DNA from: an uncultured Gammaproteobacteria bacterium
GTDB lineage: Bacteria; Patescibacteriota; Patescibacteriia; Magasanikbacterales; JBBTQS01
Assembly (NCBI GenBank): GCA_965230935.1
Contig: OZ246400.1
Span: forward strand, 310,359 to 374,358
Reading direction: 5' to 3'
Length of the DNA: 64,000 nucleotides
Part shown: in pieces, positions 1-62,360 of the stretch
Layout: each line of letters begins with the position of its first letter
Position numbering within the stretch: position 1 is the stretch's first letter
The notes under the pieces: generated by a model
Database searches by the model: none
The model's input: only the letters and a program-made list of their open reading frames with translations
Told to the model about the DNA's origin: nothing
Program-made: the position numbers and the translations under genes

Positions 1-1010
1 AAATCTTCATGCAAAAGTGTATCCTTTTTAACAGATTTAATCAACTTTTTACCTAGAAAATCTTCGTATCGCTTTGCTGGTATTCCTATCCCGGGTCTCT
101 TTACACAAATGTCGTGCTTTCCAAGAATTAATCCTTCAGATAAATCCCTTTTTGCTACAAGACTGTGATAAGCCCAATCTCTGATAACTTGCTCGTCAGA
201 ACTAACATTCTTATCTTTACCCAAAGACCTCCAAATTGCGTGTGTAGCCGAACAAAGTTCTGACAATTGCAGGCGATCCAAAGAAATGGCGTGATCAGGA
301 CCAGGCAAATCTTTATTAAGAGTGAAATGCTTTTCAATAATCTTTGCCCCCAAAGACACAGAAGCCACTGACGTCCAAATTGTAGGAGTGTGATCCGACA
401 AGCCAACATGGCACACGAATTTTTCTTTGTATACATCCAATAGTTCTAAATTAATTTCGGAATAGTCTGGGGGGTACGCGCTAACGCAATACAAAAGCAC
501 AAAAGGACATCCTTCCAGTTTGATCATATCTACAGCCTCAGCAATCTCATCAAGTGTAGACATCCCGGTTGAAACAATCATTGTTTTGCCTTTCTTGGCA
601 ATGTGCCTTAATAGGTGTAAATTTTGCATTTCACCTGAACCAATTTTGTAAAATTCAACACCCAAATCTTCTAATTTGTCACTAGCTTCTATTGAAAATG
701 GGGTACATAAATAAGTTATGCCTATACCCTCACAATAATTTTTAATTTCTCGATGATCCTCGTGACTTAACAAATTAGAATTCAATATCTTGTATAAATC
801 ACCCGCCCACATACTTACCGAACCAGGAATCATCTCAATATCTGGAATGTGATATTGAAACTTTGCAAAATGTGCACCAGAAATTTTTGCTTCTCTTATC
901 AGTTGCTTTGCAAGCTCAAGCGATCCACAATGATTATCCGCTATTTCAGCAATTATTAATGGAGGGCTTTGTTCATTTATTTTATATTGTCCTAATTGCA
1001 CATCCTTCAT
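1..1010 (-). CDS. neuB: NeuB-family nonulosonic acid synthase (N-acetylneuraminate / pseudaminic / legionaminic acid synthase), C-terminus runs off window edge
   Basis: Manual translation from ATG at 1010 gives MKDVQLGQYKINEQSPPLIIAEIADNHCGSLELAKQLIREAKISGAHFAKFQ... with no stop down to position 1. The N-terminus matches NeuB/PseI family sequences. It is absent from the ORF track because it is truncated at the window edge. AT-rich codon usage like the bulk of the window. Confidence 0.75.
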   Translation of the reverse strand, partial: MKDVQLGQYKINEQSPPLIIAEIADNHCGSLELAKQLIREAKISGAHFAKFQYHIPDIEMIPGSVSMWAGDLYKILNSNLLSHEDHREIKNYCEGIGITYLCTPFSIEASDKLEDLGVEFYKIGSGEMQNLHLLRHIAKKGKTMIVSTGMSTLDEIAEAVDMIKLEGCPFVLLYCVSAYPPDYSEINLELLDVYKEKFVCHVGLSDHTPTIWTSVASVSLGAKIIEKHFTLNKDLPGPDHAISLDRLQLSELCSATHAIWRSLGKDKNVSSDEQVIRDWAYHSLVAKRDLSEGLILGKHDICVKRPGIGIPAKRYEDFLGKKLIKSVKKDTLLHED

Positions 1011-1055
1011 AATAGCTATATAATAATCTAATTATTTAACCTCTCCTCTTTATAT

Positions 1056-1763
1056 ATGCCGCCCCTCGCCCTCATCCCCATCCGCTCTGGCTCCAAAACC
1101 CTTCCAGACAAAAACATCGCTCCAATCATGGGCAAGCCACTCGTTGCCCACACTATTGAATGTGCTCAACAAGTCAATATCTTCGATCGCATCATCGTCC
1201 TCACCGACAGCCAACATTACGCAGACATCGCCCAAGAATACGGTGCCCAAATCCCCTTCTTACTCCCTCCCGAAGTCACCCAAGACACTTCACCGGTCAA
1301 AGACGCGATCCACTTTGCACTCAACAAGATTCCAAACCTGCCAGAGCATACCTTTTTACTCGAGGCAACCTCATACCGCCTCCCTATTCATATTACGCAA
1401 GCATGGGACTTGCTGCAAACACCTGACACCGACTCACTCATCAGCGTAATCCGAACCCCAAAACAATATATCCCTGATTGGACCATTACTATCAATGACT
1501 CAGGCTACAGCACACTGCTCAGCGGCCAACCTTTACATACCGTAATCCCCCAACGTCAATCTCTCTCCACAACCTATACGCGCAATGGCGCAATCTACGC
1601 TTTTAAAACAAATCTTGCCCAACAAACACCACCACGACTCTACGGTGACCAATGTCGCGCCTACATAATGGACCCAATCTTCAACATTGACATCGACACC
1701 CAAGCCCATCTCAACGATTTTGAAAAACTACTCTTCAATAATTCCTTTCCAAAATACCATTGA
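1056..1763 (+). CDS. neuA: acylneuraminate cytidylyltransferase (CMP-nonulosonic acid synthetase)
   Basis: N-terminus MPPLALIPIRSGSKTLPDKN...KPLVAHTIE matches the CMP-NeuAc synthetase / CTP-transferase-3 family glycine-rich motif. Adjacent and divergent to the neuB-like gene. C-rich, G-poor coding strand, compositionally unlike neuB. Confidence 0.75.
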   Translation: MPPLALIPIRSGSKTLPDKNIAPIMGKPLVAHTIECAQQVNIFDRIIVLTDSQHYADIAQEYGAQIPFLLPPEVTQDTSPVKDAIHFALNKIPNLPEHTFLLEATSYRLPIHITQAWDLLQTPDTDSLISVIRTPKQYIPDWTITINDSGYSTLLSGQPLHTVIPQRQSLSTTYTRNGAIYAFKTNLAQQTPPRLYGDQCRAYIMDPIFNIDIDTQAHLNDFEKLLFNNSFPKYH

Positions 1764-5131: not shown

Positions 5132-6202
5132 ATGACTCGCCTTTTTCTTACACCAAAATTTGACCCCGCTAAGCCGGCAGTATATCTGGTTGATTCTTAT
5201 TTTAATCGGGCAGATATTGGTAAAACACTCTTTACCAACAAAACACCGGATGATTATGCTTACACAACCTTTACGTTTGCCGAGGACGTGAATAGCTGCG
5301 ATTACCTCATGATCCCTCAAGATGTGCGTACCATGACTGCTGCATTTCGAACCTATCTTGATGAACAAATCACACTCGCCCGAAGCATAAACAAAAAAAT
5401 CCTCCTGTTTATTGGAGGAGATTTGTCACACACATTATCAATCAGCGATCCGGAGGTAATCGTATTTAAAGGTTCACAGTATCGGTACCTCAAGCAACCT
5501 AATGAAATTATTGTTCCGCCATTTGCTGAAGATCTGATGCAGCAATACCACCCCAAGCCCAGAACAAAATCTGACAAGTTGGTAGTGGGATTTTGTGGGT
5601 GGGCTGGATTTGACGGGGTATGGACTGCACTTAAATTCTGGGTGAAGCATTTTGGAATCATTATCAGTAGTGTGTGGAAACGCAATGCCGCAGTGCACAA
5701 AAAAGGAATCTGGTATCGCCGTCGCGCAATTGCCATATGTAAACGAGCTCCGAAGGTAAACACAAACTTCATTGTGCGTAATACTTTCTCGGCCAGCAAA
5801 CATACCATCTCCCTTGATCCAAAAACAGCGCGGAGAGAATATGTGGATTCAATCATAAATAGCGACGTCACACTAGCACCAAAGGGTGATGGTAATTTCT
5901 CTGTCCGATTTTATGAAACCTTAGCACTTGGCCGTATTCCCGTGCTCATTGATACTGATGTTGTGCTCCCACTTGAGCAGCATATTGATTACGACGAGGT
6001 GATCATTCGAATTCCCTATCAACACCTTGATCAGCTTCCACAAATTCTCGCTGATTGGTATCACAATCTCACTGATGAGGTGTTTGTGCAGAAACAAAAA
6101 AGAGCATACGAGCTCTTTACCAAAAACCTTCGCTATGATGCGTTTTGGAATACAATCTTTAATGATCCGGTAGAGCGCTTGCTTGAACCGCGCAATCCTT
6201 GA
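5132..6202 (+). CDS. exostosin-like (GT47-type) glycosyltransferase
   Basis: C-terminal segment TLAPKGDGNFSVRFYETLALGRIPVLI matches the exostosin-family motif (CxxPxGDxxxSxRxxEAlxxGCIPVI). Confidence 0.55.
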   Translation: MTRLFLTPKFDPAKPAVYLVDSYFNRADIGKTLFTNKTPDDYAYTTFTFAEDVNSCDYLMIPQDVRTMTAAFRTYLDEQITLARSINKKILLFIGGDLSHTLSISDPEVIVFKGSQYRYLKQPNEIIVPPFAEDLMQQYHPKPRTKSDKLVVGFCGWAGFDGVWTALKFWVKHFGIIISSVWKRNAAVHKKGIWYRRRAIAICKRAPKVNTNFIVRNTFSASKHTISLDPKTARREYVDSIINSDVTLAPKGDGNFSVRFYETLALGRIPVLIDTDVVLPLEQHIDYDEVIIRIPYQHLDQLPQILADWYHNLTDEVFVQKQKRAYELFTKNLRYDAFWNTIFNDPVERLLEPRNP

Positions 6203-6227: not shown

Positions 6228-6941
6228 ATGGATCAAGCACTTAAAGAAAAAATACGCAATGTTGATGGCTGGCTTACTGACCGCGAAGGTCAAGCGCTCT
6301 ACACGCTGGCGACGCGCTGCACTGGTCGTGGAGAGATTGTTGAGATTGGTTCGTGGAAAGGAAAATCAACCATCCTATTAAGTCTTGGTTCTCGCAGCAA
6401 CGCTGGCAAGCCTATTCATGCGGTTGATCCACATATCGGCTCTCCAGAGCACAACAAAAAAGAGAAAGTTTGGACCTTTGAGACATTTAAAACCAACATT
6501 GCCAACGCTGGAGTACAAGATATGGTGCGCCCGATCGTGCAGACATCAGAAGCAGCAGCACAAACTTTTTCTCAACCGGTGGAATTGGTGTTTATTGACG
6601 GCGCACATGAATATGAAGCGGTAAAACTTGACTTTGACTTGTGGTTTCCAAAAGTGGTTGATGGTGGAGTTATGGCATTTCATGACACCATTGGCTGGCA
6701 AGGACCGAAACAGGTGGTGCAAGATCTGGTCTATCGTTCGACACGATTCAAGAACGTCCGGTTCGCTGATAGTCTTACCTATGCCACCAAAGTTTCACAC
6801 AACACCCTGACCGACCGGCTACGCAATCGGTACATGCTGCTGCTAAAAAATATCACCGAGTTTGCCACCTGCAAACTCCGCTTGCCCAAATGGCTCAAGC
6901 GCATTGGGAAAAAAGCAATCACCACGTTAAGCGGATCTTAA
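6228..6941 (+). CDS. class I SAM-dependent methyltransferase (Methyltransf_24 / TylF-MycF-like O-methyltransferase family)
   Basis: DGWLTDREGQALYTLA....GEIVEIGSWKGKST followed by VFIDGAHEYEAV. Internal Met at 6228 avoids overlap with the upstream gene; the ORF-track start is 6183. Confidence 0.6.
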   Translation: MDQALKEKIRNVDGWLTDREGQALYTLATRCTGRGEIVEIGSWKGKSTILLSLGSRSNAGKPIHAVDPHIGSPEHNKKEKVWTFETFKTNIANAGVQDMVRPIVQTSEAAAQTFSQPVELVFIDGAHEYEAVKLDFDLWFPKVVDGGVMAFHDTIGWQGPKQVVQDLVYRSTRFKNVRFADSLTYATKVSHNTLTDRLRNRYMLLLKNITEFATCKLRLPKWLKRIGKKAITTLSGS

Positions 6942-8215
6942 CTTGAGGCATTACTTGTGTGCGACGTGTCTTTTGCTGTGTACAACAATGAAGATGCCAC
7001 AATAACTCCGATAAACTTCATCAACAAGTGAGCAACAACAGCGCCGATCAAACCAAAATACTTGATCAGCGCCACACTTACCACAATCTGTAATACATTG
7101 GTCACCACAGAGAATTTATACAGCTGCCTTTTTTGACTATGCGCTTCAAGCGCAGCAACCGGCACATACACCAGTGCCCCAAACAATGAAAAAGCAAGCA
7201 CCTGTGTGAGAACAATTGAATCATGGTATTGCGGGAAGAAAAAATCAAAAATATACGGCGCAGCTACTGCATATGCGACTACTACTACCAACATAACCAG
7301 AGCAAATTTTGCCATTTTTGAAAAAAACACAATCTTAATCTCACGAAGCGGGCGAGAGGCGAATTTGGGCAATGCCATACGTGGGATGATTTTAAACAAT
7401 CCCTTCAACTGGTCCGGAATGGCGAGTGCAAACAAATACACAGCTGTATGTGTGGCGCCCAAATAATGAAACACGAGCACTTTGTCAATATGACTGGCTA
7501 ACGTATTAAACAAATTGATAATACTTAAGTGCTTGCTATAATTAAGCGAATACGTTTTTTTTTCTTTTTTGATTGCAAATCGCCTCACGGTTCTCCAATA
7601 TACCGCAATCCCGACTGCGGCCATGGAAATAAAGTATGCCAGCACCATTGGCAATAACGCGTCGCTCATAACCATGGTAACAAGGAGCACCATTGAGACC
7701 ACGGTATTGCTGAACAACCAATAGAGCACTGAAGTTTTAAAATCTTTGATTCCACCTAAAAAGGCGCTATACAACCCGGTACTATTAATCAACGGAGTAA
7801 ATACCGCGATGAGCACCATAGCAAAGGCCAACATGGCGTTGCCGGCAAATGAATAGTAAATCGCGGCACCAAGCGCAGCAATACTGATAGGAAAACTCCA
7901 ATACAAATTTTTGCGAAATGCAAAACGTAAAAATCCTTTTTGCCCGCGCGCCACTGCTTGTACCACAACCGTACCCAATCCGGTTAGAGAAAACGATCCT
8001 AAAATAGACGCGACCGACAAAACAAACTTGTAACTACCATATACTTGCTGTGTTAGTAGGTTTGCATAGGCAATTGACATGACAAATGCGGTCAAGGCAG
8101 TGAGTGTTTGTGAGAGTACCAACCATGACCCACCTTTAGCAAGGTAGACCATATCCGTTTTAAAATATCGCTCACTTGAACGGAGCAAACGATACAATGA
8201 TGATTGGCGTGGCAT
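6938..8215 (-). CDS. oligosaccharide/polysaccharide flippase (Wzx-like, MOP superfamily)
   Basis: 425 aa, about 12 predicted TM helices, N-terminal LAKGGSWLVLSQTLTALTAFVMSIAYANLL typical of Polysacc_synt/Wzx. Sits in the glycan locus. Confidence 0.65.
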   Translation of the reverse strand: MPRQSSLYRLLRSSERYFKTDMVYLAKGGSWLVLSQTLTALTAFVMSIAYANLLTQQVYGSYKFVLSVASILGSFSLTGLGTVVVQAVARGQKGFLRFAFRKNLYWSFPISIAALGAAIYYSFAGNAMLAFAMVLIAVFTPLINSTGLYSAFLGGIKDFKTSVLYWLFSNTVVSMVLLVTMVMSDALLPMVLAYFISMAAVGIAVYWRTVRRFAIKKEKKTYSLNYSKHLSIINLFNTLASHIDKVLVFHYLGATHTAVYLFALAIPDQLKGLFKIIPRMALPKFASRPLREIKIVFFSKMAKFALVMLVVVVAYAVAAPYIFDFFFPQYHDSIVLTQVLAFSLFGALVYVPVAALEAHSQKRQLYKFSVVTNVLQIVVSVALIKYFGLIGAVVAHLLMKFIGVIVASSLLYTAKDTSHTSNASS

Positions 8216-8219
8216 GATC

Positions 8220-9329
8220 TTATGATGTTATGCGCGCAATGGTCTTTTGCCATGCGACACATCCAGTATACCAGTCTTGTAAGGCTTTGCGTTGTGCATC
8301 GTCCCATTCTTCCAAACGCAACCACTGCTGTACCGCCTCAAGAATTTGGTCAAAACACTGCGTATACGTTGCACCGGTCAACTCAACCTCGCGTAGCAGT
8401 TCGCAAAATCGATCAGTGGTTTGCATTCCCATCCGTTCGGTATCATAGTCTTTAAAATAGTTGTGCGGATTGCGCTCCTGATTCACAATTGGCGTACCAT
8501 AGAGCACCAACTCACCCAAATGGTCTGTGATCTTACGCACAATATAACTTGCCCAAATATCATCATAGCGTCCAATAAACGGGCTCAAAAAGTATGCTGG
8601 CAACACGGCACGACTCATGCCGGTGTTTTGTGAATTAAACGGAGACCACGTACCATTTTGTAAGGTAAACTGTCCATCACGTTTGTATTCAGTAACCGTC
8701 ACCGGACATGAAAGCCGCTGGACCGCGTCAATATCTGGGTCATCCATCCAAAATCCTGCCACCACTGCACCAACGCCCTGCGCTTGCCCCCACTGCACAT
8801 CTTTGGCTTCTTCTCCTCGCATTTGTACTGGAAATCCCCGATGGTAAAATACTGCTCCGCGCTGTTCAGTAAGTTCGTCACACACATTAAACCAGCCGGT
8901 ACTGGTACTCACCGCGTCTGCTGCAGTCTGTTGTCCAATGGCAGCATACGCACCAAAGTAATCTTTTTCCAAAACAAAATTATCATCATCAATGGTAATA
9001 ATGACTTGTGCCCCAAGTTGATAGGCGCGCAACAATGAAACATTGCGGCGTTGAATACAATTCCACGGCAAATGTTCTAATAGTTCTGGAAAATCCTCCA
9101 AATATGCGTCTTGCGCTGGGGCATCATAATACTCGCAAGTGTACCCAAATTTTTCTTGCAATCCGGCAACAAACTCTCCAACCTCTGTTGGTGTTTTTTT
9201 ATCTCCGGTCACTACGACCACCAAATCATCTTTTGCCACACCATTGTCTTGCGCATTTTGCAAATACGCATCCAAAAGTTTTGGCACATAAATTGTAGTG
9301 GTCACTAAGGCAAATCGTGGAGTACTCAT
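8220..9329 (-). CDS. RGP / GT75-family protein (UDP-L-arabinopyranose mutase-like, reversibly glycosylated polypeptide family)
   Basis: Strong motif matches to plant RGP1: [14 protein letters not shown] vs [34 protein letters not shown] vs [31 protein letters not shown] vs RGYPFSLREG. The N-terminal [11 protein letters not shown] matches HLIIVQDGDPSK. Confidence 0.75.
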   Translation of the reverse strand: [369 protein letters not shown]

Positions 9330-10381
9330 AAAATATTTGGGTTATGAAGACGCTTATGCGCATGATCTAACACACGCTGAAGTCCTTCTTCTAAGCTAAT
9401 CTTTGGTTTCCATCCAAATGACATCACGCGAGATGGGTCGCCAAATCGGTTTTGAACACCAACTGGCTTGTCCAACAACTGTTTAATACCAGGTTCATAC
9501 CCTTCGAGTTTGGCATAGGTCTTACAAATCGTGTTAAAACTGGTGAGCACACCGGTACCAATGTTAACCCCACTGCCATCATGCACATGATCCAAAATCG
9601 TAATCATTGCCTCAACACAGTCATCGATATGAATAAAGTCGCGTGCTTGCTCACCAGTCCCCCACACCGTGAGCGGTGCCTCGTGCTTAGCAACGCGCAG
9701 AGCAATCGCCGGGACAGGATAACTTAGATCCTGATCCTCGCCATAGCCTGAAAAGGGTCGCACACAGGCAACCTTCATGCCGTATTGCTTCGCCGCCAAT
9801 GTACTTAAGTATTCACCGGTCAACTTACTCCATCCATACGTCATATCCGGTTGACCAACCGTACTTCCATCAAATGTAATCATTGACTCATCCAGCTTGG
9901 TGAACCCATCTTCTCCTTGCAATTGTGTTGGGTATGCGGCACTGGAACTTGCATACAACACCCGGTCAATCCGTTCTGGTTGACGCGTTGCCCACAAAAA
10001 GAATACCGCATCAATGCCCAAATCAGTTGCCACACGCATTGGATCACCATCAATCAACGCGCGACCACCGACAATCGACGCCAAATGATACACATCAGAA
10101 AATTCAGGCAATGTGTCGATTTGGTCGTTGGTTACGATGGTATATAAATAGGAAAGTAAATCACGATTTAAAAACGTAATAGTTGACTCACCCACATTGT
10201 AGATCACCTGCTGCTCATCTTGAGAACGTATCGTACCGCCAAGCCACACATCAGGATGTTTTCCAGTTGATAAATCATCAATAATCCAAAGGTCATGCCC
10301 GCGCTTGAGTAATGCAGACACCAAATGCCGGCCAACAAACCCACATCCTCCGGTAATTAAAATTGGTTTTTGCTTTTCCAT
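9326..10381 (-). CDS. NAD-dependent sugar-nucleotide epimerase/dehydratase (extended SDR)
   Basis: ILITGGCGFVGRHLV Rossmann motif, YASSSAAYP, and catalytic YGWSK (YxxxK). Overlaps the RGP-like gene by 4 nt, suggesting translational coupling. Confidence 0.7.
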   Translation of the reverse strand: MEKQKPILITGGCGFVGRHLVSALLKRGHDLWIIDDLSTGKHPDVWLGGTIRSQDEQQVIYNVGESTITFLNRDLLSYLYTIVTNDQIDTLPEFSDVYHLASIVGGRALIDGDPMRVATDLGIDAVFFLWATRQPERIDRVLYASSSAAYPTQLQGEDGFTKLDESMITFDGSTVGQPDMTYGWSKLTGEYLSTLAAKQYGMKVACVRPFSGYGEDQDLSYPVPAIALRVAKHEAPLTVWGTGEQARDFIHIDDCVEAMITILDHVHDGSGVNIGTGVLTSFNTICKTYAKLEGYEPGIKQLLDKPVGVQNRFGDPSRVMSFGWKPKISLEEGLQRVLDHAHKRLHNPNIL

Positions 10382-10382
10382 A

Positions 10383-11120
10383 TTATTTGGTAAATGTCTC
10401 TACCCGTTGCCATCGAATACGCCACGCTGGTGCCAGATAGCCCAACATGGTCGAGGTGTTATTATTTGATTCTCCTTCTTTGCGCGGCTTCCATGCTGAT
10501 GGCACTTCAGCAACTCGTGCCCCGCGACGCAATGGTTTGAGCAAACACTCCACTAAAAATGGATGCTTAAGTTCTTCCCATGTGATCCCCTCCAACACCT
10601 CGCGCCGATAGAGTCGAAATCCAAAGGTGAGATCAGTAAGCCGCACGCCATACAAGAGCGAAAAAAACTTTTGGAACACATAGTTTGCAACCATTTTAAC
10701 GGCGCCATACCCTTCAAACCCTCCGCCTTTGACCCAACGCGTGGTAGCCACAATATCTACATCGCCTTGTTGCATACGCGCCACCATGTCTTTGGCCGTT
10801 GCTGGATCGGTTTCAAGGTCTGATGACATGAGCAGTACGTAATTTTTTTGCGCTGCAGCAAATGCATCCTGCATTGCGCCACCCAGATATGATTTTTGCT
10901 GCTCAACCACGCGAATCTGCTCACCATACTGCTGCGTGAGCTGGGCAATCACCGCACGACTCTCTGATGTGGTTCGCTCAGGATGAATCACGATAAGGAT
11001 TTCTCCAATATATTGCGCATTTTCTTCCATCACAATATCAACGGTTTTTTGTAAAGAAAACGTCTCATTCATCACCGGAATCACTACTGAAATTGCATGC
11101 GTCAAATCAGGGGTATTCAT
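10383..11120 (-). CDS. GT2 glycosyltransferase, polyprenyl-phosphate sugar synthase-like (DPM1/ArnC-like)
   Basis: ISVVIPVMNE start typical of GT2. DLETD and ...GFRLYRREVL motifs. Start at Met 11120 (MNTPDL) is preceded by an AAGGA Shine-Dalgarno; the ORF-track start is 11171. Confidence 0.65.
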   Translation of the reverse strand: MNTPDLTHAISVVIPVMNETFSLQKTVDIVMEENAQYIGEILIVIHPERTTSESRAVIAQLTQQYGEQIRVVEQQKSYLGGAMQDAFAAAQKNYVLLMSSDLETDPATAKDMVARMQQGDVDIVATTRWVKGGGFEGYGAVKMVANYVFQKFFSLLYGVRLTDLTFGFRLYRREVLEGITWEELKHPFLVECLLKPLRRGARVAEVPSAWKPRKEGESNNNTSTMLGYLAPAWRIRWQRVETFTK

Positions 11121-11179
11121 GTTCCTTAGGGTATCAGAAGCCGATATGTGGGTCAATGAAAACTGGAACAACGCTCATT

Positions 11180-12769
11180 TTATTCTTCACCATCAAAATG
11201 AACAGTATACGCACGCAATGTGGAACCATGATAACTCAAATTATCAATTGAAAGATTTGTAATTTCTTGTAAATAGTCCTCAGGATTATCAATCCCAAGC
11301 AGTGGTCGGTATCGATATCCTAATGCAATATCATAATCAACATAATGCGTAATACCGACAGTTTTGAAAAACTCCCATAATTGCTTTTGTTTGATTGCTG
11401 TATAGGCATCGTGGTTCACTAAACCATCGCTGTTCATAATAAATCGATCAGACAAATACCCATAGATACCACTGTTAAATGAAGCGATCCTGGCATTTTC
11501 GGGTAAATTCTCGCGTATCCAATACGCGGCACGAATCATATCTTTCTCTGCAGGATACAACGGTAGTGCGGTTAATCCAGTACCAATAAAAAGTCCAGCA
11601 ATCCCAAGTGCCATAATCAATTGCATGCCGCGATTGCGTAGTGCTGACAATTGCGACCCAATCCACACCGCAACAAACACCAGCACAATTTGCGGGCCAA
11701 CAAAATACCACTCACGGGGTGTCCACCGGAGCGCGCCGTGGATCGCAACAAACAGGACACTAGCTACCATCACCATACCAATGTAGCGATTAGGAGCGTG
11801 TTGCCAATGCTTTCGCATCGCGGCAAAACGCTGTTTTGTGCGCAACCACTTGAGTGCAAGAGCGCCAAATGCAGCGTACACGAGCGCACCAATCGCCGTT
11901 TGCATTACCACCATATGGATGGCGAGTGCAAATTGATATGCAGACCAAATCAGCACCGTAGTGACGGTTCGATCTTTATAAAAAAACAACTGGCGATTAG
12001 TAAATGTAAGTGACAAACCACTTTCTTGTATTGGTGTACCTAAAGTGAAATAGCTCCACAGTACCCATGGGCTCAGCAGAAGGAAAAACGGAATAGAAAG
12101 ACTAAACGCCGTACGCCAAAATGCCCGTCGGTGATGCCACAAAAACCACAAGAAAATAACTCCAGGAAATACACCATAATCACTACGCGCAAGGGCAAGC
12201 AGCGCACCAAGTGCCCCCCACAAGGCAATACGTTTGATTGGCCAGCGATCCAGACCATAGATAATTGGAAAACCGATGAAGATTGCAAAGAGCATTATTG
12301 TGAGACTTGTTTCTAGCCCATTGAGCGCTGCAACCAACTGAAAAGGTGATAGTGCAACCAATGCCAACACCCACAGTGCTGCCCCAGCACGAAAGAGCTT
12401 GCGCGCAACACGATAGATCACCGCCAATGTTATTGCATCAAATAATGCTCCAAGAGTTACTAAAATATGCACCGGCAATGCATCACCTGCACCAGAGGTA
12501 AGCTTCATCACTCCTGTCACAATCCCCATCCACAATGGATGATATCCATTCGTCAAATGCAATCCATCAAATGTTGAGCCAAACCCTTCGGCGATATTTT
12601 GCCCAATTGCAAAATAATAAAATGAATCATCTGGCACAAACCATGCCGCCAACGTTTCGAGTGGCAACCAGGCAAGAATCAACCGCACCAGAAGCACTGC
12701 TGCAATTAAGCCAAAAGCAATCCGATCCACACGATCAGAGATGAACTTATTGTTTTTTCGCCAACACAT
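11180..12769 (-). CDS. GT-C fold membrane glycosyltransferase (PMT/ArnT-like, GT39/GT83-type)
   Basis: 529 aa with many TM helices and an N-terminal periplasmic-loop acidic motif (FVPDDSFYY). Paired immediately downstream of the GT2 polyprenyl-P-sugar synthase, the classic arrangement. Confidence 0.55.
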   Translation of the reverse strand: MCWRKNNKFISDRVDRIAFGLIAAVLLVRLILAWLPLETLAAWFVPDDSFYYFAIGQNIAEGFGSTFDGLHLTNGYHPLWMGIVTGVMKLTSGAGDALPVHILVTLGALFDAITLAVIYRVARKLFRAGAALWVLALVALSPFQLVAALNGLETSLTIMLFAIFIGFPIIYGLDRWPIKRIALWGALGALLALARSDYGVFPGVIFLWFLWHHRRAFWRTAFSLSIPFFLLLSPWVLWSYFTLGTPIQESGLSLTFTNRQLFFYKDRTVTTVLIWSAYQFALAIHMVVMQTAIGALVYAAFGALALKWLRTKQRFAAMRKHWQHAPNRYIGMVMVASVLFVAIHGALRWTPREWYFVGPQIVLVFVAVWIGSQLSALRNRGMQLIMALGIAGLFIGTGLTALPLYPAEKDMIRAAYWIRENLPENARIASFNSGIYGYLSDRFIMNSDGLVNHDAYTAIKQKQLWEFFKTVGITHYVDYDIALGYRYRPLLGIDNPEDYLQEITNLSIDNLSYHGSTLRAYTVHFDGEE

Positions 12770-13748
12770 AAATACCGGTCATATGATTACGGGTAACTCG
12801 CAAATATACCCACAGCACTGCTGCAGGAATCGAAAACAATGTATAGTCTTTTATTTTTGCGAGTACAAAGAGCACCTGAATTTTACCACTACGTTTGGGT
12901 GATGTCGATGGATTATCTTGTGGTACTTGAGTAGATGTTTCACCTTGCGCTTGTGCATCGCGCTTGTATGCCAACTTTTTGGCTTTAGCAACCAACCCAA
13001 AACTCAAATATCCAGCAGTCCAAAAATGAAACTTGGTCACCAAATACGCAAATGAAGCACCATAGCGACGAAACTTTACCACATCAAACCCATTGGCTGA
13101 TAAAAAATGGCGATACGCCGTGCGATTCCAGCGACTTAAATGACGAGGCGGCACATCATTTACTTTAAACGGCTGCCACGAACCTCGGTATGGTGTGCTA
13201 ATCACCATAAACCCACCTGGCTCTAGCACATCGTGAATCTCGCGAACAAACGCCTGAGGATTATCCAGATGCTCTAACACTTCAAACAATGTCACCACAG
13301 CAAACTGCTTTTGTGGGAAGTGTTCACGAAACTGCGCTAATGTCATGGCATATGCCTGACGCAAACCAAACACATTTTTAGCTACCTCAATAGCATACGT
13401 ATCAAAGTCCAACCCGTGTACATCGTAACCAATTTTGCGCGCCGCATTGATAAAATTTCCAGTCCCCATTCCTAAATCAAGCAATGTCCCATTGGGGGCA
13501 GGATTATCGCGCAAAAACATACGATGCGTAATCACCGGCTTCATGTGCGGATCAGCATTGCGATCAGCATACCGCTCATCATGTTCATACCACTGCGCAC
13601 CTGGATTTTGCATAGGATCCCAAAACTGACCAACGCAAACTGCACATTCCCAAAGCGTATAACCATCATGTGTCTCCTGATATGTGAGTGGAGCCTGTTC
13701 AAGACAAATGCCACAATGGTTTGGCGCTTGAGGTTGTGTCTGATCCAT
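12747..13748 (-). CDS. class I SAM-dependent methyltransferase with N-terminal zinc ribbon
   Basis: CGICLEQ...CAVCVG zinc-ribbon pairs. LLDLGMGTGNF (motif I) and VVTLFEVLEHLDNP (motif II/III). Confidence 0.6.
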   Translation of the reverse strand: MDQTQPQAPNHCGICLEQAPLTYQETHDGYTLWECAVCVGQFWDPMQNPGAQWYEHDERYADRNADPHMKPVITHRMFLRDNPAPNGTLLDLGMGTGNFINAARKIGYDVHGLDFDTYAIEVAKNVFGLRQAYAMTLAQFREHFPQKQFAVVTLFEVLEHLDNPQAFVREIHDVLEPGGFMVISTPYRGSWQPFKVNDVPPRHLSRWNRTAYRHFLSANGFDVVKFRRYGASFAYLVTKFHFWTAGYLSFGLVAKAKKLAYKRDAQAQGETSTQVPQDNPSTSPKRSGKIQVLFVLAKIKDYTLFSIPAAVLWVYLRVTRNHMTGIYVLAKKQ

Positions 13749-13750
13749 AC

Positions 13751-14419
13751 TTACTTTTTGGCGCTTACCAAATATCCCATTGGGTAGGTGTCACCGCGAT
13801 AGGATTTACCCGTGATTTTGGCAAACCCGGTGAATAGCGCGTCGCATACCTTTGCACACCAGGTGAGCGGATACTCCACAATGGCGCTCAAAAATCCTGG
13901 AAGCAAACGCCCAATAAACAAATGGCGAGTCATAAATACTCCCCCACCAATTGGCGTAATAGTCACCTGAGAAAAACCGGCTTCAGTAAACATGCGCTCA
14001 AGCGCGCGATCAGTAAAGCGATAAAAATCATGCGGACTTGGGTGGATTGGGTACAAAAATGGCACTACCGCGACAACCGGCGCACCAGAACGGACAACGC
14101 GATACGTCTCCTGCACAAGTTGTTGCACATGATAAATATGCTCCAATACATTAATAAGCAATGCACCATCATACGATGCATCAGCTACGGGAATTGGTTC
14201 TTCAAGATCAGCAACAATATCCGTGTCTTTGATCGTGTCGAGATTTACGGTTTTGACTGTAAAATCACCCTCCAAAAACTGATGATACTCACTCGCATGC
14301 TCACCCCCTAAATCCAAAATTTCACCAGTGAATTTATGGCCAGCAAGCGCGGCATGAGTTTGTCGACGAAATACACTATACATAGGCAAAAGTATACGTT
14401 CTGTTTGGCCAATTGTCAA
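13751..14419 (-). CDS. class I SAM-dependent methyltransferase (type 11)
   Basis: ILDLGGE motif I and DGALLINVLEHIYHVQQLV motif. Confidence 0.6.
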   Translation of the reverse strand: MTIGQTERILLPMYSVFRRQTHAALAGHKFTGEILDLGGEHASEYHQFLEGDFTVKTVNLDTIKDTDIVADLEEPIPVADASYDGALLINVLEHIYHVQQLVQETYRVVRSGAPVVAVVPFLYPIHPSPHDFYRFTDRALERMFTEAGFSQVTITPIGGGVFMTRHLFIGRLLPGFLSAIVEYPLTWCAKVCDALFTGFAKITGKSYRGDTYPMGYLVSAKK

Positions 14420-14496: not shown

Positions 14497-15555
14497 ATGG
14501 AAAATCAAGACCCCAAAGCAATACTGATCACCGGCGGCGCCGGTTTTATTGGGAGCAATGTATTGCGCCATCTTTTCAAACAATTTCCCAACACACATTT
14601 TCACGTGTTAGACCTGCTCACCTATGCAGGAGATATTAAAAATATCGACGACGAAATTCATGATTCTGGTCGCTTTACCTTTTGGTATGGTGACATCCGC
14701 AATGAGCAGCTGGTAAACGAAATTATTGGTCGTTGTGAAATGGTAATTCATTTTGCAGCAGAAACCCATGTGGCACGCTCAATTTACGATGACGTCAAAT
14801 TTTTTGAAACTGATGTGCTGGGTACGCGTGCAATCGCAAATGCTGTTTTGCAGCATCGTGAGACCATCAAACGCTTTATCCATATTTCAACGTCCGAGGT
14901 GTATGGAACTGCTGACTACGAACCAATGGATACCAAACACCCGCTCAACCCAATGAGTCCATATGCTGCTGCAAAAGCAGGAGCAGATCGTCTGGTGTAT
15001 TCATACATGGCAACCTATAATTTACCAGCCACGATCATCCGTCCGTTTAACATCTATGGTCCGCATCAACATTTGGAAAAATTGATTCCACGCTTTATCA
15101 CGAGTGTGATGCTGGATGAACCAATGACCGTTCATGGAGACGGTAGCTCCCAGCGCGACTTTACCTATGTCGAGGATGTAGCACGCGCAATTGAACTCGT
15201 GCTGAAAGCACCGGATGAAAAAGTCCGTGGAGAAGTTTTCAATGTCGCCAGTGGAGTCGCTCGATCAGTACTTGAAATTGCGCAAAAGATCACCGAACTC
15301 TTTAAAGCACAAGAGAATCTAAAATTTAGTCCGACAACCATTAATGTTGGTGATCGTCCTGGGCAGGTCTTCAAGCATATTGGTGATGCCAGTAAAATTA
15401 AAGACGTCCTTGGCTGGGAACAACAGGTTAGTTTTGAAGAAGGACTTAAGCGCACCATGAACTGGTATGTTGAGCGTCGTGAGTGGTGGAAAGAAAAAAT
15501 TTGGATGCGACATGTAGAGATCCTCACCCAAGAAGGCACCAAAGAACTTCACTAA
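14497..15555 (+). CDS. NDP-hexose 4,6-dehydratase (dTDP/CDP-glucose 4,6-dehydratase family)
   Basis: ILITGGAGFIGSNV, VIHFAAETHVARS, STSEVYG, YAAAKAGADRLVYSY, IRPFNIYGPHQHLEKLIP all match the RfbB-type 4,6-dehydratase family. Nucleotide specificity not determinable. Confidence 0.7.
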   Translation: MENQDPKAILITGGAGFIGSNVLRHLFKQFPNTHFHVLDLLTYAGDIKNIDDEIHDSGRFTFWYGDIRNEQLVNEIIGRCEMVIHFAAETHVARSIYDDVKFFETDVLGTRAIANAVLQHRETIKRFIHISTSEVYGTADYEPMDTKHPLNPMSPYAAAKAGADRLVYSYMATYNLPATIIRPFNIYGPHQHLEKLIPRFITSVMLDEPMTVHGDGSSQRDFTYVEDVARAIELVLKAPDEKVRGEVFNVASGVARSVLEIAQKITELFKAQENLKFSPTTINVGDRPGQVFKHIGDASKIKDVLGWEQQVSFEEGLKRTMNWYVERREWWKEKIWMRHVEILTQEGTKELH

Positions 15556-15558
15556 TCT

Positions 15559-16503
15559 ATGGCAGCTCGACGAGCATTTATCACCGGGGCAAGTGGTTTT
15601 GTAGGTAGCAACCTTCTTCGTGCGCTGCTTGCTGATGGGTATGAAGTGCATGGTCTGGTGCGCGCAAAATCAGCATCTGCGTGGCGTTTACCCAGCGATG
15701 CCGCGAATCTTCATTTACATGAAGGCGATATTACTGACGAAAAATTTTTGACCCGAATTCTTAAAGAGATTGCACCACACGAAGTGTACCATCTGGCACA
15801 CTATGGTGGATATCGCGGGCAAGACGATGTGCGCATGATCCGAAACGTCTGCATTGATGGCACACAAGCGCTCTACAATGCTTGCGCCCAGATTAATAGC
15901 ATTGAAGGAATTGTCCATGCCGGGAGCTCATCTGAATATGGAGTGAAGCCAGAATCCATGCGCGAAGACATGGTGCTTGAACCACACACTGAATATGGCA
16001 TTGCCAAAGCATGGGCAACATTGTATGGGCAAATGTTGGCGCGCCAGAACATCTTACCAATCACAACGGTACGACTGTTTGCGGTGTACGGACCATACGA
16101 AGCAGCAACTCGCCTGGTGCCAGCTGCAGTATTAGCGGCGTTGCGCAACACTACGATGAATCTCTCTGACCCAACAGCCACTCGTGACTTTGTGTATATC
16201 GATGATGTAATTGCTGCACTACGCCTTGTGGCAACCGGAAAACATTCCGGAAGCATTTACAATATTGGTGGTGGGGCACAAACCACGATCAAAGATATGG
16301 TTGACCTGATCGCACAAGCGGCACATGTATCTTTAGACATACATATTGGAACCATTGCCGGACGAAACGCTGATGTTCCATTTTGGCAAGCAGATATCTC
16401 ACAGGCAACTGCAGAACTTGGCTGGAAACCAACACATACTCTTAAAGATGGCGTTGCAAAAACAGTTACCTGGTTTACCCAAAATCAAACCTTATACACC
16501 TAG
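15559..16503 (+). CDS. NAD(P)-dependent epimerase/reductase (SDR), probable deoxysugar 4-reductase/epimerase
   Basis: FITGASGFVGSNLLRALL Rossmann motif and YGIAKAW catalytic YxxxK. Follows the 4,6-dehydratase with a 3-nt gap. Confidence 0.6.
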   Translation: MAARRAFITGASGFVGSNLLRALLADGYEVHGLVRAKSASAWRLPSDAANLHLHEGDITDEKFLTRILKEIAPHEVYHLAHYGGYRGQDDVRMIRNVCIDGTQALYNACAQINSIEGIVHAGSSSEYGVKPESMREDMVLEPHTEYGIAKAWATLYGQMLARQNILPITTVRLFAVYGPYEAATRLVPAAVLAALRNTTMNLSDPTATRDFVYIDDVIAALRLVATGKHSGSIYNIGGGAQTTIKDMVDLIAQAAHVSLDIHIGTIAGRNADVPFWQADISQATAELGWKPTHTLKDGVAKTVTWFTQNQTLYT

Positions 16504-16507
16504 TATT

Positions 16508-17329
16508 ATGGCGCAAAAGCTCAACACTACAGAACTCACCACGGCTGCCCGCGAAGTACGCGAGCTTATTTTGCGTACTGCAGCGCGCACCGGAGTGATC
16601 CATATTGGCTCCTCCCTTTCCCCTGTTGATCTGCTTGTTGCACTGTACTACGAAATAATGAACATTGACCCATCTGCTCCTAAAGATCCTAATCGCGATC
16701 GGTTTATCTTAAGCAAAGGCCATGGTGGACTCAGCCAATACGCAGTACTCGCTATGCGAGGCATTATGCCAATGCACCAACTTGATGAGTACATGAAAGA
16801 TAATAGTCTTTTGCCGGTTCACCCGGTACTTAATTCAGCTCCTGGAATTGAAGCAACGACCGGTTCACTTGGTCATGGATTAGGTATTGCCGTTGGTATG
16901 GCACTAGCCGCGAAAAAAAATAAGGCCGATTGGCGAACCTTCACCATCTTAAGCGATGGTGAGTGCGACGAAGGTTCAACTTGGGAAGCTGCGCTGTTGG
17001 CCGGTCACTTACAACTTGATAATTTGGTGGTCATGGTGGACTACAATAAAATTCAAGGCTTTGGAAACACTAAAGACATCTTGGATCTAGAACCATTTGC
17101 CGACAAATGGCGTGCAGCTCGATTTGCAGTTCAAGAAATCGACGGCCACAACTTTGACGAAATTATGCCAGCACTGCGCAACCTTCCATTATCCTCCGGC
17201 AAACCAACTGCGCTTATTTGTCACACGGTTAAAGGGAAAGGAATCCCCTACATGGAAAACACGCTCAAATGGCATTATAGCAATCTAAAACCTGAGGATC
17301 TTGATACGACGCTCGATCAATTGTCCTAG
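16508..17329 (+). CDS. transketolase, N-terminal (TPP-binding) subunit
   Basis: HIGSSLSPVDLLVALYY, DRFILSKGHGGLSQY, GSLGHGLGIAVGMA, DGECDEGSTWEA. Start taken at Met 16508, directly after the upstream stop; the ORF-track start at 16346 overlaps the previous gene. Confidence 0.75.
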   Translation: MAQKLNTTELTTAAREVRELILRTAARTGVIHIGSSLSPVDLLVALYYEIMNIDPSAPKDPNRDRFILSKGHGGLSQYAVLAMRGIMPMHQLDEYMKDNSLLPVHPVLNSAPGIEATTGSLGHGLGIAVGMALAAKKNKADWRTFTILSDGECDEGSTWEAALLAGHLQLDNLVVMVDYNKIQGFGNTKDILDLEPFADKWRAARFAVQEIDGHNFDEIMPALRNLPLSSGKPTALICHTVKGKGIPYMENTLKWHYSNLKPEDLDTTLDQLS

Positions 17330-17334
17330 TCCCT

Positions 17335-18258
17335 ATGCGCAACACCTTTATTGCTCAACTGACTGAATTTGCAAAACAAAACCCAGATGCAATGCTACTC
17401 ACTGGTGATCTTGGCTATAATGCCTTTGAGACATTTATGCAAGAACTTCCGGAGCAGTACTTGAATGTTGGTGTTGCAGAACAAAGTTTGATCAGTGTTG
17501 CTGCCGGTTTGGCACTGAGCGGCAAGAAAGTATTTTGCTATTCAATCTCCACCTTTGCGACCATGCGTGCGTATGAACAAATCCGCAATGACATTGCCTA
17601 TCAAAATTTGCCAGTGGTGATTATCGGTGGCGGAAGCACGTTTAGTTACAGCGTGCTTGGGTGCACCCATTTTCCGATGGAAGACATTGCGATTATGCGC
17701 GCACTCCCGAACATGCATGTGCTGTGCCCCGGTGATCCGCATGAGGTGAAACAGCTTATGCAACAAGTCTGTACTCTTGATGCACCGGTGTACATGCGTA
17801 CAGCAAAACGTGGAGAACCAATGGTTCATCCGGCGGATACACCAATTACACTAGGGAAGGCGGCGATGCTTCAAGATGGTACTGATGTGACTCTTGCGGT
17901 CAGTGGCCGACAATTGCCATTTGTTATGCAAGCAGCTGAGCAACTCCAAAAAGAGCACGGAATGAGTGTCCGGGTATTGAGTTTTCACACAATCAAACCG
18001 CTTGACACTCAAGCGATTCTTGATGCAGCAAAAGACACAAGCGGAATTGTGACGATTGAAGAACATTTGATTACCGGAGGTTTTGGTAGTGCTGTCGCCG
18101 AAGTATTGGCTGACGCCACTGTAAACACCACGCTTAAGCGCATTGCCGTAGCAGATGAATTTCCAAAAGGAATCGGGACGCAAGAGTATATGCTTGAGCA
18201 ATATGGCATCACCATAGAAAACATGGTGGCGCAAGCATTGGCTATTGTACAAAAATAG
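17335..18258 (+). CDS. transketolase, C-terminal (pyrimidine-binding / C-terminal domain) subunit
   Basis: GVAEQSLISVAAGLALSGK and VVIIGGGSTFSYSVLGCTH. Split-transketolase partner of the preceding gene. Confidence 0.75.
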   Translation: MRNTFIAQLTEFAKQNPDAMLLTGDLGYNAFETFMQELPEQYLNVGVAEQSLISVAAGLALSGKKVFCYSISTFATMRAYEQIRNDIAYQNLPVVIIGGGSTFSYSVLGCTHFPMEDIAIMRALPNMHVLCPGDPHEVKQLMQQVCTLDAPVYMRTAKRGEPMVHPADTPITLGKAAMLQDGTDVTLAVSGRQLPFVMQAAEQLQKEHGMSVRVLSFHTIKPLDTQAILDAAKDTSGIVTIEEHLITGGFGSAVAEVLADATVNTTLKRIAVADEFPKGIGTQEYMLEQYGITIENMVAQALAIVQK

Positions 18259-18260
18259 GT

Positions 18261-19433
18261 ATGCCAAAGGTTTTCATTATTGTGAATGAACTCCTGCGCG
18301 GCGGTGCTCAGCGCATTATTCTTGATCTGGCAAAATCCATTCCACGCGATCAGTTTGCATTACACATTGTGATGTGTAAATCAAAAGATAGTTTTCCAAA
18401 CGATGTTTCATCACTGCAAGATGAATTTGCTAAGATAGATATTCCGGTAATCTCTCTTGAGGGTGGCAAACGCTTTTCATTTGCTGAATTTCGTCGACTG
18501 GTGAGACTACTCAAAAAAGAAAAGCCTGACATTGTGCATACCTTCCTCCCCTACGCCGGAACCATGGGACGTATTGCAGCCAAGCTCGCTGGTGTGCGCT
18601 GTGTCATCAGCACCAAGTGCAATCTTCCGGTCGCCTATAGCAAAAAAGTATATTGGTTGGACAAACTCACACTATGGTTAGCTGATACGTGGATTGGAGC
18701 AACTGAGGGAATTGAGCTGCATTATGGCAAGTCAAGTAAGCGCTTCTCGCAAAAACTTTGGAATGCCGGTCGTCGACACTTTACTATTGTCGCCGGTGTA
18801 GATACGACAACACTTCAAGGGGTGCAAAACGCTATTGATTACACTGCCAAACGTGCACAAATTGATGTTCCATCAGACGCCACCATGATCTTCACCACAG
18901 CACGGCTCATCTCATGGAAAGGAATCAACTATGCAATTGATGCATTGCACAAACTTGATGCAAACACGCATTTGGTAATCGCCGGCTGGGGACCTCAAGA
19001 AGCTGAATTACGCGAGCAAGCCAATACTCTTGGTCTGACCGACCGGGTTCATTTTCTGGGAAGTCGTGATGATATCTACGAACTTTTGGCAGTTGCTGAC
19101 ATCTATGTGCAAACCTTTGCTACGATGCCGGATGGCAAACTATGGGTTGGTCCAAATACGTCACTTATTGAAGGAGCTGCCAGTGGAATCCCAGTAGTCT
19201 GCACACATGTACCACTCATTGAGCAGTTGATTGAAGATGGAATTACTGGCAAACTAGCTGATGTAAATAGTGCAGAATCATTGGCCCAAGCAATCACCTG
19301 GTGCACTGATCATCCAAAACAAGCACAAGGACTTGCACGTGCTGCACAGCAACGAGTTCACGAAAAATATTCAATCACGGCAATGAGCACACAAACGCAA
19401 CAGCTCTATAGCGCCTGTCTTAATCAGACATAA
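18261..19433 (+). CDS. GT4 glycosyltransferase
   Basis: C-terminal EGAASGIPVVCT GT4 (E-x7-E region) signature, 390 aa. Confidence 0.65.
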   Translation: MPKVFIIVNELLRGGAQRIILDLAKSIPRDQFALHIVMCKSKDSFPNDVSSLQDEFAKIDIPVISLEGGKRFSFAEFRRLVRLLKKEKPDIVHTFLPYAGTMGRIAAKLAGVRCVISTKCNLPVAYSKKVYWLDKLTLWLADTWIGATEGIELHYGKSSKRFSQKLWNAGRRHFTIVAGVDTTTLQGVQNAIDYTAKRAQIDVPSDATMIFTTARLISWKGINYAIDALHKLDANTHLVIAGWGPQEAELREQANTLGLTDRVHFLGSRDDIYELLAVADIYVQTFATMPDGKLWVGPNTSLIEGAASGIPVVCTHVPLIEQLIEDGITGKLADVNSAESLAQAITWCTDHPKQAQGLARAAQQRVHEKYSITAMSTQTQQLYSACLNQT

Positions 19434-19443
19434 TTACAACACT

Positions 19444-20661: not shown

Positions 20662-20664
20662 GTC

Positions 20665-21828: not shown

Positions 21829-21831
21829 GCT

Positions 21832-29262: not shown

Positions 29263-29265
29263 AAA

Positions 29266-31515: not shown

Positions 31516-31522
31516 ACTGGAG

Positions 31523-37454: not shown

Positions 37455-37602
37455 AGATAAGTTTCCTTTCTTGTTAATTTTTTTGACTATGCTACCCCCT
37501 TTGGGTCGACCTTTCAGCCGCATAGTATTGTGTCTCCCTCAATCATTTATATAGAGATACACATGTATCGTCACAACGTGCATGACGACGACATCTATAT
37601 CA

Positions 37603-51424: not shown

Positions 51425-51633
51425 GGTCTGTTTTACTACACTGAAATAATTCCCATTCGTATGGGAAGTACCCCCAGTATACTATAAAAATCGCTCAAAA
51501 TACAGCAGAAAATACTGAAGGCCGGAGGGCGTAGCGAAGTTCATCGCGTTGCCCACCGGCCCCCGGTGTTGTTGTATGTCATGTACGACAGTAGGTGTGT
51601 CAGATCAGACGGACGATCCCCGCCCCAGCACCC

Positions 51634-55412: not shown

Positions 55413-55556
55413 GGAACTCTCCTATCACCGCCCTTAGCAAGGCGCGGTTATACACACGCCCAGAGGGCAGGCCAACAGGATCTCTTGATGTCGCTCGCTG
55501 CTCCATCTGCATCAATCCTGTGAATGAGCACGAATCAAATAGGTTATCCTACTGAT

Positions 55557-55601
55557 TGCGCAATGAATACTGTCCACTAGCATGAACCTCATTCATTGCG
55601 C
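55557..55601. promoter_or_regulatory. large inverted repeat TGCGCAATGAAT-N22-ATTCATTGCGC upstream of the OmpA-like gene
   Basis: 11/12-bp arms located 145-190 bp upstream of the start at 55412, in an AT-rich spacer. Confidence 0.35.
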
Positions 55602-62349: not shown

Positions 62350-62360
62350 GAAATAAAAAA

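Follow-up and report, generated by a model that had tools for sequence, protein, structure and literature searches.

The 64,000-nucleotide stretch analysed here, called the window throughout (positions 310,359 to 374,358 of contig OZ246400.1, assembly GCA_965230935.1, deposited as an uncultured gammaproteobacterium and placed by GTDB in the Patescibacteriota, Magasanikbacterales), harbors at 8220..9329, on the minus strand, a gene encoding a 369-residue homologue of the nucleoside diphosphate (NDP)-sugar pyranose-furanose mutases of glycosyltransferase family 75 (GT75; RGP/MtdL-like). By its sequence the protein belongs to the bacterial MtdL branch of the family and is not of the plant type that a preliminary description of the locus had proposed. 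Its most conserved partners, which that description did not mention, are a GT2 glycosyltransferase resembling dolichol-phosphate-mannose synthase (DPMS) and a membrane glycosyltransferase of the GT-C class, both encoded in the same operon. We favor, with moderate confidence, the view that the GT75 protein is a cytosolic, flavin-independent mutase converting an NDP-sugar from the pyranose to the furanose form within a lipid-carrier operon; this operon, conserved in many uncultured bacteria, probably serves to attach a sugar with a five-membered ring to a membrane lipid, in order to decorate the cell surface.

Membership of the family, already recognized in the preliminary description, was confirmed with the Pfam model RGP (PF03214; E 7.3e-11; 42.3 bits, the gathering score being 23.8), with the alignment restricted to profile positions 90-333, i.e., the C-terminal two thirds. 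The STELLO model of Pfam gave a weak, sub-threshold secondary match, none of the NCBIfam models matched the protein, and nearly all of its homologues carry a precomputed PF03214 annotation. The sequence blocks reported as near-identical to those of plant enzymes are indeed present, nonetheless near-plant identity is not: the Pfam model, in which plant sequences dominate, is matched only modestly overall, and the resemblance is therefore at the level of motifs only. A single-sequence phmmer search aligned the protein with MtdL (7yua) at E 6e-38, and a profile built from 32 clade members aligned with MtdL over the full length (E 4e-76, 260 bits), as against 33 bits, over the C-terminal half only, for 8cid ('UDP-arabinopyranose mutase'), the only other GT75 structure that the Protein Data Bank (PDB) contains. 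The MtdL entries (7XPR, 7YUA, and others) are deposited as 'Transglycosylse' and were identified through the paper describing the enzyme (PMC9937993), according to which MtdL from Marinactinospora thermotolerans (A201A pathway) and Hyg20 from Streptomyces hygroscopicus are Mn2+-dependent GT75 mutases of GDP-L-galactose/GDP-L-fucose pyranose. The window protein shares with MtdL its length, the same three-region layout and homology from end to end, although at about 35% identity only.

The functional residues defined in MtdL (PMC9937993) were mapped onto 72 clade members taken from genome loci, and 17 of the 20 are identical in the window protein, including the DDD triad, the nucleophile Arg, the general-base Asp, the Arg and Gln that contact the beta-phosphate, and the Arg and His of loop A. 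Across the clade, T13, I15, D40, R90, D109-D111, N112, R159, D195, S228, Q229, R257, D260, R289, and H292 (MtdL numbering) are kept in 67-72 of the 72 members; I15 accounts for the lowest value (67/72), the others range between 70 and 72, and eight are strictly invariant. Along the gene, the DXD motif D114-D116 (MtdL D109-D111) and the adjacent N117 lie in ITIDDDNFV (residues 111-119; 8973..8999, minus strand, as are the blocks that follow), invariant in all 72 members. The HRGFP block (residues 163-167; 8829..8843) contains Arg164, equivalent to MtdL Arg159, the proposed nucleophile and the autoglycosylated Arg of plant UDP-arabinopyranose mutases (UAMs) (PMC9937993), while the RYDD-type block (residues 252-262; 8544..8576) contains R254 (MtdL R257, binding beta-phosphate and sugar) and D257 (MtdL D260, the proposed general base). 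R164, D199, and D257 (MtdL R159, Asp195, and Asp260) are invariant across the clade. In CIQRRN (9042..9059) C91 corresponds to MtdL S86, a base-selectivity position, I92 to D87, with a substitution specific to the clade, and R95 to R90, and a block at 8457..8486, which aligns to MtdL without gaps, carries R286 and H289 (MtdL R289 and H292) together with Q284.

Three positions differ from MtdL in the clade as a whole. N42, which contacts the guanine O6 in MtdL, is Lys (K45 in the window protein); D87, which contacts the sugar O4, is Ile or Val in 69/72 members (I92); and H287, the second Mn2+ ligand, is Gln in 71/72 (Q284). An MtdL-type mutase would be expected to carry Asp where I92 stands and His where Q284 stands.

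The gene lies in a seven-gene operon on the minus strand (14383..6938), in which two methyltransferases are followed by the GT-C, the GT2, a short-chain dehydrogenase/reductase (SDR), the GT75 and a Wzx-like flippase, with tight junctions (overlap by ATGA; intervals of 1, 4, and 8-59 nt). The coupling to the SDR gene (9326..10381) pointed out in the preliminary description holds, since the TGA stop of the latter overlaps the GT75 start as ATGA, a classic translational-coupling arrangement. The GT2 gene (10383..11120; PF00535) encodes a polyprenyl-phosphate glycosyltransferase-like protein of 245 residues with no transmembrane (TM) domain, whose NCBIfam matches (AglJ, Dol-P hexose transferase, ArnC, PgfS, and PpgS) are all below the cut-offs and whose sole PDB match is the dolichol-P-mannose synthase of P. 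furiosus (5mlz, E 6e-13). It reads SSD (family consensus ASD) in place of the DAD of DPMS, and HPE (consensus xPxxTTPE) replaces the DDGS-type motif, the canonical DXD and base-binding Asp of polyprenyl-P GT2 enzymes being absent from it.

The membrane protein encoded at 11180..12769 (529 residues) gave a weak PMT_2 match; PF13231 is found in its homologues, which go by the names GT39 or ArnT-like, sequence searches of its family against the PDB found nothing, and the fold was resolved by structure prediction alone. The AlphaFold2 (AF2) model (pLDDT 92.9) has significant Foldseek matches in the PDB exclusively among GT-C enzymes (STT3, AglB, ArnT, ALG9/12, DPY19, AftA/B/D, PglB, and Pmt4), and on this model the protein is of GT-C fold. 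The near-invariant D47-D48 close to its N-terminus provides the acidic motif of the first extracytoplasmic loop. GT-C enzymes use only lipid-linked donors.

At the two ends of the operon stand the genes for the S-adenosylmethionine (SAM)-methyltransferases (13751..14383 and 12747..13748, recognized by Pfam) and for the Wzx-like flippase of the MOP family (Polysacc_synt, 425 residues; 6938..8215), which starts 4 nt past the GT75 stop and may serve the same pathway. Wzx-type proteins usually flip undecaprenyl-diphosphate-oligosaccharides. A promoter-like site, TTGACA-17-TATACT, is found on the same strand at 14391..14419, in the intergenic stretch between divergent genes, upstream of the operon, and is recognized by its match to the consensus only (11/12 positions).

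The conservation of this context was evaluated in 80 related loci. An ortholog of the GT2 is adjacent to GT75 on the same strand in 50 of them, an ortholog of the window SDR (45-70% identity) stands directly upstream of GT75 in 33, and 23 have both; in 27 loci, mostly from Bryobacterales, the GT2 abuts GT75 without the SDR. Proteins of 500-600 residues with multiple TM segments precede the GT2 in many related loci, GT-C enzymes are often near, and both methyltransferases are kept beside the cassette in the Patescibacteria locus L006. In several loci of the candidate phyla radiation (CPR), GT75 is followed by small ORFs with four TM segments and weak SMR/TMEM234 matches, reminiscent of ArnE/F, which hint at a flippase. 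A natural fusion (P0129, metagenomic, 742 residues) joins an ortholog of the SDR (52% identity to the window SDR, E 4e-128) to a GT75 domain.

Other arrangements were met in the same comparison. In a second metagenomic protein (P0126, 570 residues) the GT75 domain is fused to a SAM-methyltransferase, which was considered as a homologue of the operon methyltransferases and showed no significant similarity to them. Six CPR loci (L015, L016, L017, L018, L026, and L035) encode beside the cassette a protein of about 270 residues, in which an RfaE-domain-II-like (adenylyl/cytidylyl) nucleotidyltransferase is combined with a type-II phosphomannose-isomerase cupin; this fusion may supply an NDP-sugar precursor in those loci and is absent from the window. 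The window also encodes large Wzy_C (O-antigen-ligase-like) proteins, three tandem paralogues at 27181..33559 and a fourth at 49922..51424, all on the minus strand, homologous to a family of Wzy_C + TPR proteins bordering the GT2-SDR-GT75 cassette in six CPR loci.

Taken in the order of the reactions, the pathway would start with the SDR, which may epimerize a common NDP-pyranose, most likely at C4, to the epimer accepted by the mutase. By analogy with MtdL, GT75 would then contract the ring, with Arg164 attacking C1 to form an Arg164-sugar adduct and Asp257 shuttling protons as general base. The DPMS-like GT2 is expected to move the furanosyl residue to polyprenyl phosphate, thereby draining an equilibrium that favors the pyranose; the lipid-linked furanose would be flipped across the membrane, and the GT-C would transfer it from the lipid to an extracytoplasmic envelope polymer, while either the sugar or the acceptor may be the target of the two methyltransferases. 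In its most general form, the proposal is that a polyprenyl-phospho-furanose, which would be a hitherto undescribed class of lipid-linked furanose donor, is produced in uncultured Patescibacteria/CPR, Acidobacteriota, Binatia, Nitrospinota, and other bacteria by means of a flavin-independent Ile/Gln-site GT75 coupled directly to a DPMS-like GT2, and is then used by GT-C enzymes on the cell envelope; it is a tentative one, to which we give somewhat less than even credence. Such a route would be NDP-sugar-based, parallel but unrelated to the biosynthesis of decaprenyl-P-arabinofuranose (DPA) in mycobacteria. Mycobacteria derive the latter compound from phosphoribosyl pyrophosphate (PRPP) through DprE1/E2 and use no NDP-sugar for it.

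The nucleotide carried by the sugar is best approached through the base pocket of GT75. The choice of base is governed by the MtdL residues T13 and S86, whose plant counterparts are Pro and Asp, S86D abolishing GDP binding in MtdL, and the selectivity positions T13/N42/S86 of MtdL read P/D/D in plant RGPs (PMC9937993). The window protein has T11/K45/C91 at these sites rather than the plant residues, and retains the Thr and Asp with which MtdL contacts guanine; as read from the alignment, the first and last of the three positions, here Thr and Cys/Ser, are in the GDP-type state. Moreover, seven basal loci (L040, L041, L062, L071, L078, L079, and L083) carry GDP-sugar genes beside GT75, namely GDP-L-fucose synthase (Fcl), GMD-like dehydratases, HddA-like kinases and HddC/ManC-like guanylyltransferases, the Fcl proteins scoring 442-455 bits in L062 and L071 and 257 bits in L078 against a cut-off of 500 bits. 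The GT75 genes of L062 and L071, amid the GDP-sugar genes, each have a member of the cassette GT2 family, an ortholog, beside them (in L062 in the order Fcl, GMD-like, GT2, GT75, kinase), and the base pocket T11/D43/K45/C91 of the window protein is identical in the GT75 proteins of L062, L071, and L078. Because GT75 in GDP-sugar loci agrees with the window protein in its base pocket (T/I/D/K/C), GDP is favored: we hold GDP to be slightly more probable than not, UDP distinctly less so (with L-arabinose the better and galactose the poorer candidate for its sugar), and any other nucleotide less likely than UDP.

The SDR (351 residues; PF01370, E 1e-35) has a GxxGxxG motif at residues 11-17, SSS at 145-147 and Y182xxxK186, and no Glu of the dehydratase/decarboxylase type; given this S/Y/K triad without the Glu, it is best regarded as a putative epimerase, probably acting at C4. 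Its assignment by homology (NCBIfam, single-sequence and profile searches of the PDB, AF2 with Foldseek) yielded neither a nucleotide nor a sugar, as UDP-hexose 4-epimerases, UXS (UDP-glucuronate decarboxylase), GDP-fucose synthase and GDP-mannose 3,5-epimerase (GME) follow one another within a few orders of magnitude, all at 22-27% identity, and no specific kinship to characterized UDP-xylose or UDP-arabinose epimerases emerged among these UDP and GDP enzymes. A role as a GME-like 3,5-epimerase, making GDP-L-galactose upstream of an MtdL-type step, was provisionally rejected: the positions that we take, by eye, to be those of Cys145 and Lys217 of GME are Ala and Pro/Tyr in the SDR, and that presumed to match Cys109 of Fcl is Ala. 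Likewise, the DPMS structure paper was uninformative about the donor nucleotide of the GT2, the region of the guanine-binding Asp39 being deleted or replaced in the GT2 family.

Among the alternatives, the one that survives best is the route put forward in the preliminary description, in which UDP-glucuronate would be converted to UDP-xylose by UXS, to UDP-L-arabinopyranose by the SDR acting as UDP-xylose 4-epimerase and to UDP-L-arabinofuranose by GT75, for a surface glycan. The decarboxylase reported at 25019..25960 (minus strand) is a genuine, full-length UXS (human UXS1, E 8.5e-119, 400 bits, residues 2-311), and a UDP-glucose 6-dehydrogenase (UGD), which was also sought, has a counterpart on the same contig and in the same glycan region, a short way outside the window at its start (L001 19343-20716), where a UGD-like gene scores 276 bits as NDP-sugar dehydrogenase and is closest to AglM and TuaD. 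The SDR is epimerase-like in its triad, with UDP-hexose 4-epimerases as best structural neighbors, and the conversion of UDP-L-arabinopyranose to UDP-L-arabinofuranose is exactly the reaction of plant GT75 enzymes (PMC9937993). What is not conserved is the link between these parts: in none of the 80 related loci, the 33 with the SDR included, does an ortholog of UXS or UGD occur within 8 kb of GT75, and in the window itself UXS is 15.7 kb from GT75 in a separate transcription unit, with an oppositely oriented operon (14497..22872, plus strand) in between. It has, in addition, a plausible alternative consumer of UDP-xylose or UDP-glucuronate in the exostosin/GT47-like protein encoded at 5132..6202 (plus strand), which shows a weak match to the RXYLT1 C-terminal region and has a counterpart of 50% identity beside the same cassette in L006. 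Considering also that GT75 is MtdL-like, with Thr and a small residue where the plant UDP enzymes have Pro and Asp, and that its relatives sit in GDP-sugar operons, this route is a minority reading, which we judge unlikely.

A less probable explanation is that GT75 is not a mutase at all, the loss of Asp87 and His287 having made it a glycosyltransferase that modifies itself or protein arginines, a conventional GT-A enzyme or a partner devoid of catalysis. It draws on the fact that D87N and D87S abolish the activity of MtdL and that His287, a Mn2+ ligand, is conserved in MtdL and the active AtRGP1-3 and lacking from AtRGP5, an inactive plant protein (PMC9937993), as well as on the weak match to STELLO. 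On the other side, no other residue for catalysis or substrate binding varies among more than 70 diverged sequences, Arg257, missing from AtRGP5, is kept in the clade, and plant enzymes are active with Ser at position 87. Among 137 representatives at 50% identity, Gln occurs at position 287 in 98, and residues 87 and 287 vary together between two discrete states, either D+H as in MtdL or I/V (also G/F) with Q, which suggests an active site of an alternative, compensated kind and not one in decay. The synteny with enzymes that form and consume NDP-sugars also fits a protein that modifies NDP-sugars, and we consider the loss of mutase function improbable. Still less credit is given to a flavin-free route to UDP-galactofuranose, with the SDR as UDP-glucose 4-epimerase and GT75 replacing the FAD-dependent Glf as UDP-galactopyranose mutase, for although the top PDB matches of the SDR are GalE enzymes, its orthologs are automatically annotated as 'UDP-glucose 4-epimerase' and plant GT75 enzymes also turn UDP-galactopyranose into UDP-galactofuranose (PMC9937993), the SDR is only 22-27% identical to any GalE, the annotation is a generic, COG-level name, and the base-pocket residues of GT75 speak against UDP here as they do for L-arabinose.

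Several observations nonetheless weigh against a mutase that feeds a lipid carrier, and against GDP as its nucleotide. Asp87, essential in MtdL, and the metal ligand His287 are both replaced, and therefore catalysis may differ or be lost; for the members of the clade, mutase activity is a predicted one. The lack of the canonical DXD and DDGS motifs in the GT2 means that its donor is not readable from DPMS, the assignment of the flippase is weak, and in 20 of the 80 loci both the GT2 and the SDR are absent beside GT75. As for the nucleotide, the nearest structures of the SDR are UDP-hexose 4-epimerases (GalE), which favors UDP over GDP, and both UXS and the UGD-like gene are present in the same genome region.

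The cassette may be compared with several known systems. MtdL belongs to an antibiotic gene cluster, whereas the window GT75 stands in an operon for cell-envelope glycans, together with a GT-C and a polyprenyl-P GT2. The plant class-1 RGP/UAM proteins (e.g., OsUAM1 and AtRGP1-3, UDP-L-arabinopyranose mutases) share with it the PF03214 family, the DDD, RG(F/Y)P, and RYDD(I/M)W blocks and the autoglycosylated Arg, but the window protein reaches only 42 bits with the Pfam model and has T/K/C instead of P/D/D, Ile instead of Ser at position 87 and Gln instead of His at 287. Lipid-carrier systems such as ArnC/ArnE-F/ArnT, GtrB/GtrA/Gtr-type, DPM1/PMT, and decaprenyl-P-arabinofuranose with Emb/Aft likewise combine a DPMS/ArnC-like GT2 and a GT-C transferase, here in one operon, and a small SMR-like protein with four TM segments recurs in some related loci; they differ in that the donor would here come from an NDP-furanose made by the GT75 mutase, and in that the window GT2 is devoid of TM helices and of the canonical DXD/DDGS. 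We know of no lipid-carrier system that makes its donor from a GT75-derived NDP-furanose. FAD-dependent mutases (Glf/UGM, and the CDP-fucopyranose mutase of Campylobacter HS:41.17; PMC12369002) also convert NDP-pyranoses to NDP-furanoses for surface polysaccharides, but have an unrelated fold and employ reduced flavin, in contrast to the GT-A fold, Arg nucleophile and divalent cation of the window GT75. Campylobacter was considered as a source of bacterial GT75 enzymes and discarded on the basis of one paper on a furanose mutase of that genus (PMC12369002), in which the HS:41.17 mutase is FAD-dependent and GT75, MtdL, or RGP receive no mention.

The preliminary description regarded proteins of this family as rare in bacteria, an opinion that had to be abandoned, as GT75 is rare among cultured organisms only. 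Homologues fall into 2453 clusters of 50% identity at E<=1e-3 (1444 at E<=1e-10 and 332 at E<=1e-30), and the scored candidates into more than 2500 clusters of 90% identity. A pattern scan, which sets a lower bound, detected the family in at least 292 of 185,579 species genomes, nearly all of them metagenome-assembled genomes (MAGs) and from at least ten phyla; the carriers include Patescibacteria/CPR, Acidobacteriota (Bryobacterales and Terriglobales), Binatia, Nitrospinota/Nitrospirae, Gammaproteobacteria, Chlamydiae, Planctomycetia, Dehalococcoidia, and Dormibacterota. The nearest homologues of the window protein are from Patescibacteria MAGs, and in a neighbor-joining tree its neighbors are Patescibacteria, Magasanikiibacteriota and a single gammaproteobacterial MAG, while most SDR-linked GT75 proteins stand together, interleaved with GT2-only members from Bryobacterales and Acidobacteriota. 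As of 2023, the only characterized bacterial GT75 enzymes were MtdL and Hyg20, both from actinomycete antibiotic pathways (PMC9937993); within the collection of papers searched, we found no later characterization of a bacterial GT75 and no description of the GT2-GT75 cassette.

The remainder of the window contains other glycan-related genes and some unusual features. The divergent operon at 14497..22872 (plus strand) encodes an NDP-hexose 4,6-dehydratase-like protein (317 bits with a dTDP-glucose dehydratase model), a second SDR, GT4 enzymes, a split transketolase (16448..17329 and 17335..18258) and an RfbH-like 3-dehydrase (19444..20661, 392 bits), and looks like a pathway to a 3,6-dideoxy or a two-carbon-branched sugar. 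At and beyond the window start (window 1..1763 and L001 18320..20716), a NeuB-like nonulosonic acid synthase and a CMP-sugar cytidylyltransferase (1056..1763) accompany the UDP-glucose-dehydrogenase-like gene. On the minus strand, two large ORFs of 1275 and 735 residues (33696..37523 and 43191..45398) have no Pfam match, and a neighboring ORF at 45621..47711 encodes a GHL15 glycosyl-hydrolase-like protein with FG-GAP repeats. The region 51600..57100 forms a GC-rich island (58-63% GC vs. about 44% elsewhere) that could derive from horizontal acquisition or from chimeric assembly; its minus-strand genes (51634..53649, 54162..55412, and 55843..57045) encode secreted, Cys-rich or lipoprotein-like products with no Pfam matches, and the long antisense ORFs within it are probably GC artefacts. 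A tmRNA gene is located at 61962..62350 (plus strand; Rfam, 124.7 bits), with a long tag peptide of 25 residues, ANVYSRVKGAIAQAFSTPSFAPVVA.

To our knowledge, furanoses are absent from mammals, and therefore the pathways leading to them are useful as markers and targets; flavin-free mutases, in turn, are wanted as tools for the synthesis of NDP-furanoses. Should the route to UDP-L-arabinofuranose prove true, it would show the plant pathway at work in a bacterium. The GT75 clade described here is large, unstudied and nearly confined to uncultured lineages, with two residues that are essential or metal-binding in MtdL systematically changed, and its pairing with a GT2 and a GT-C predicts a new way to lipid-linked furanose donors for envelope glycans.

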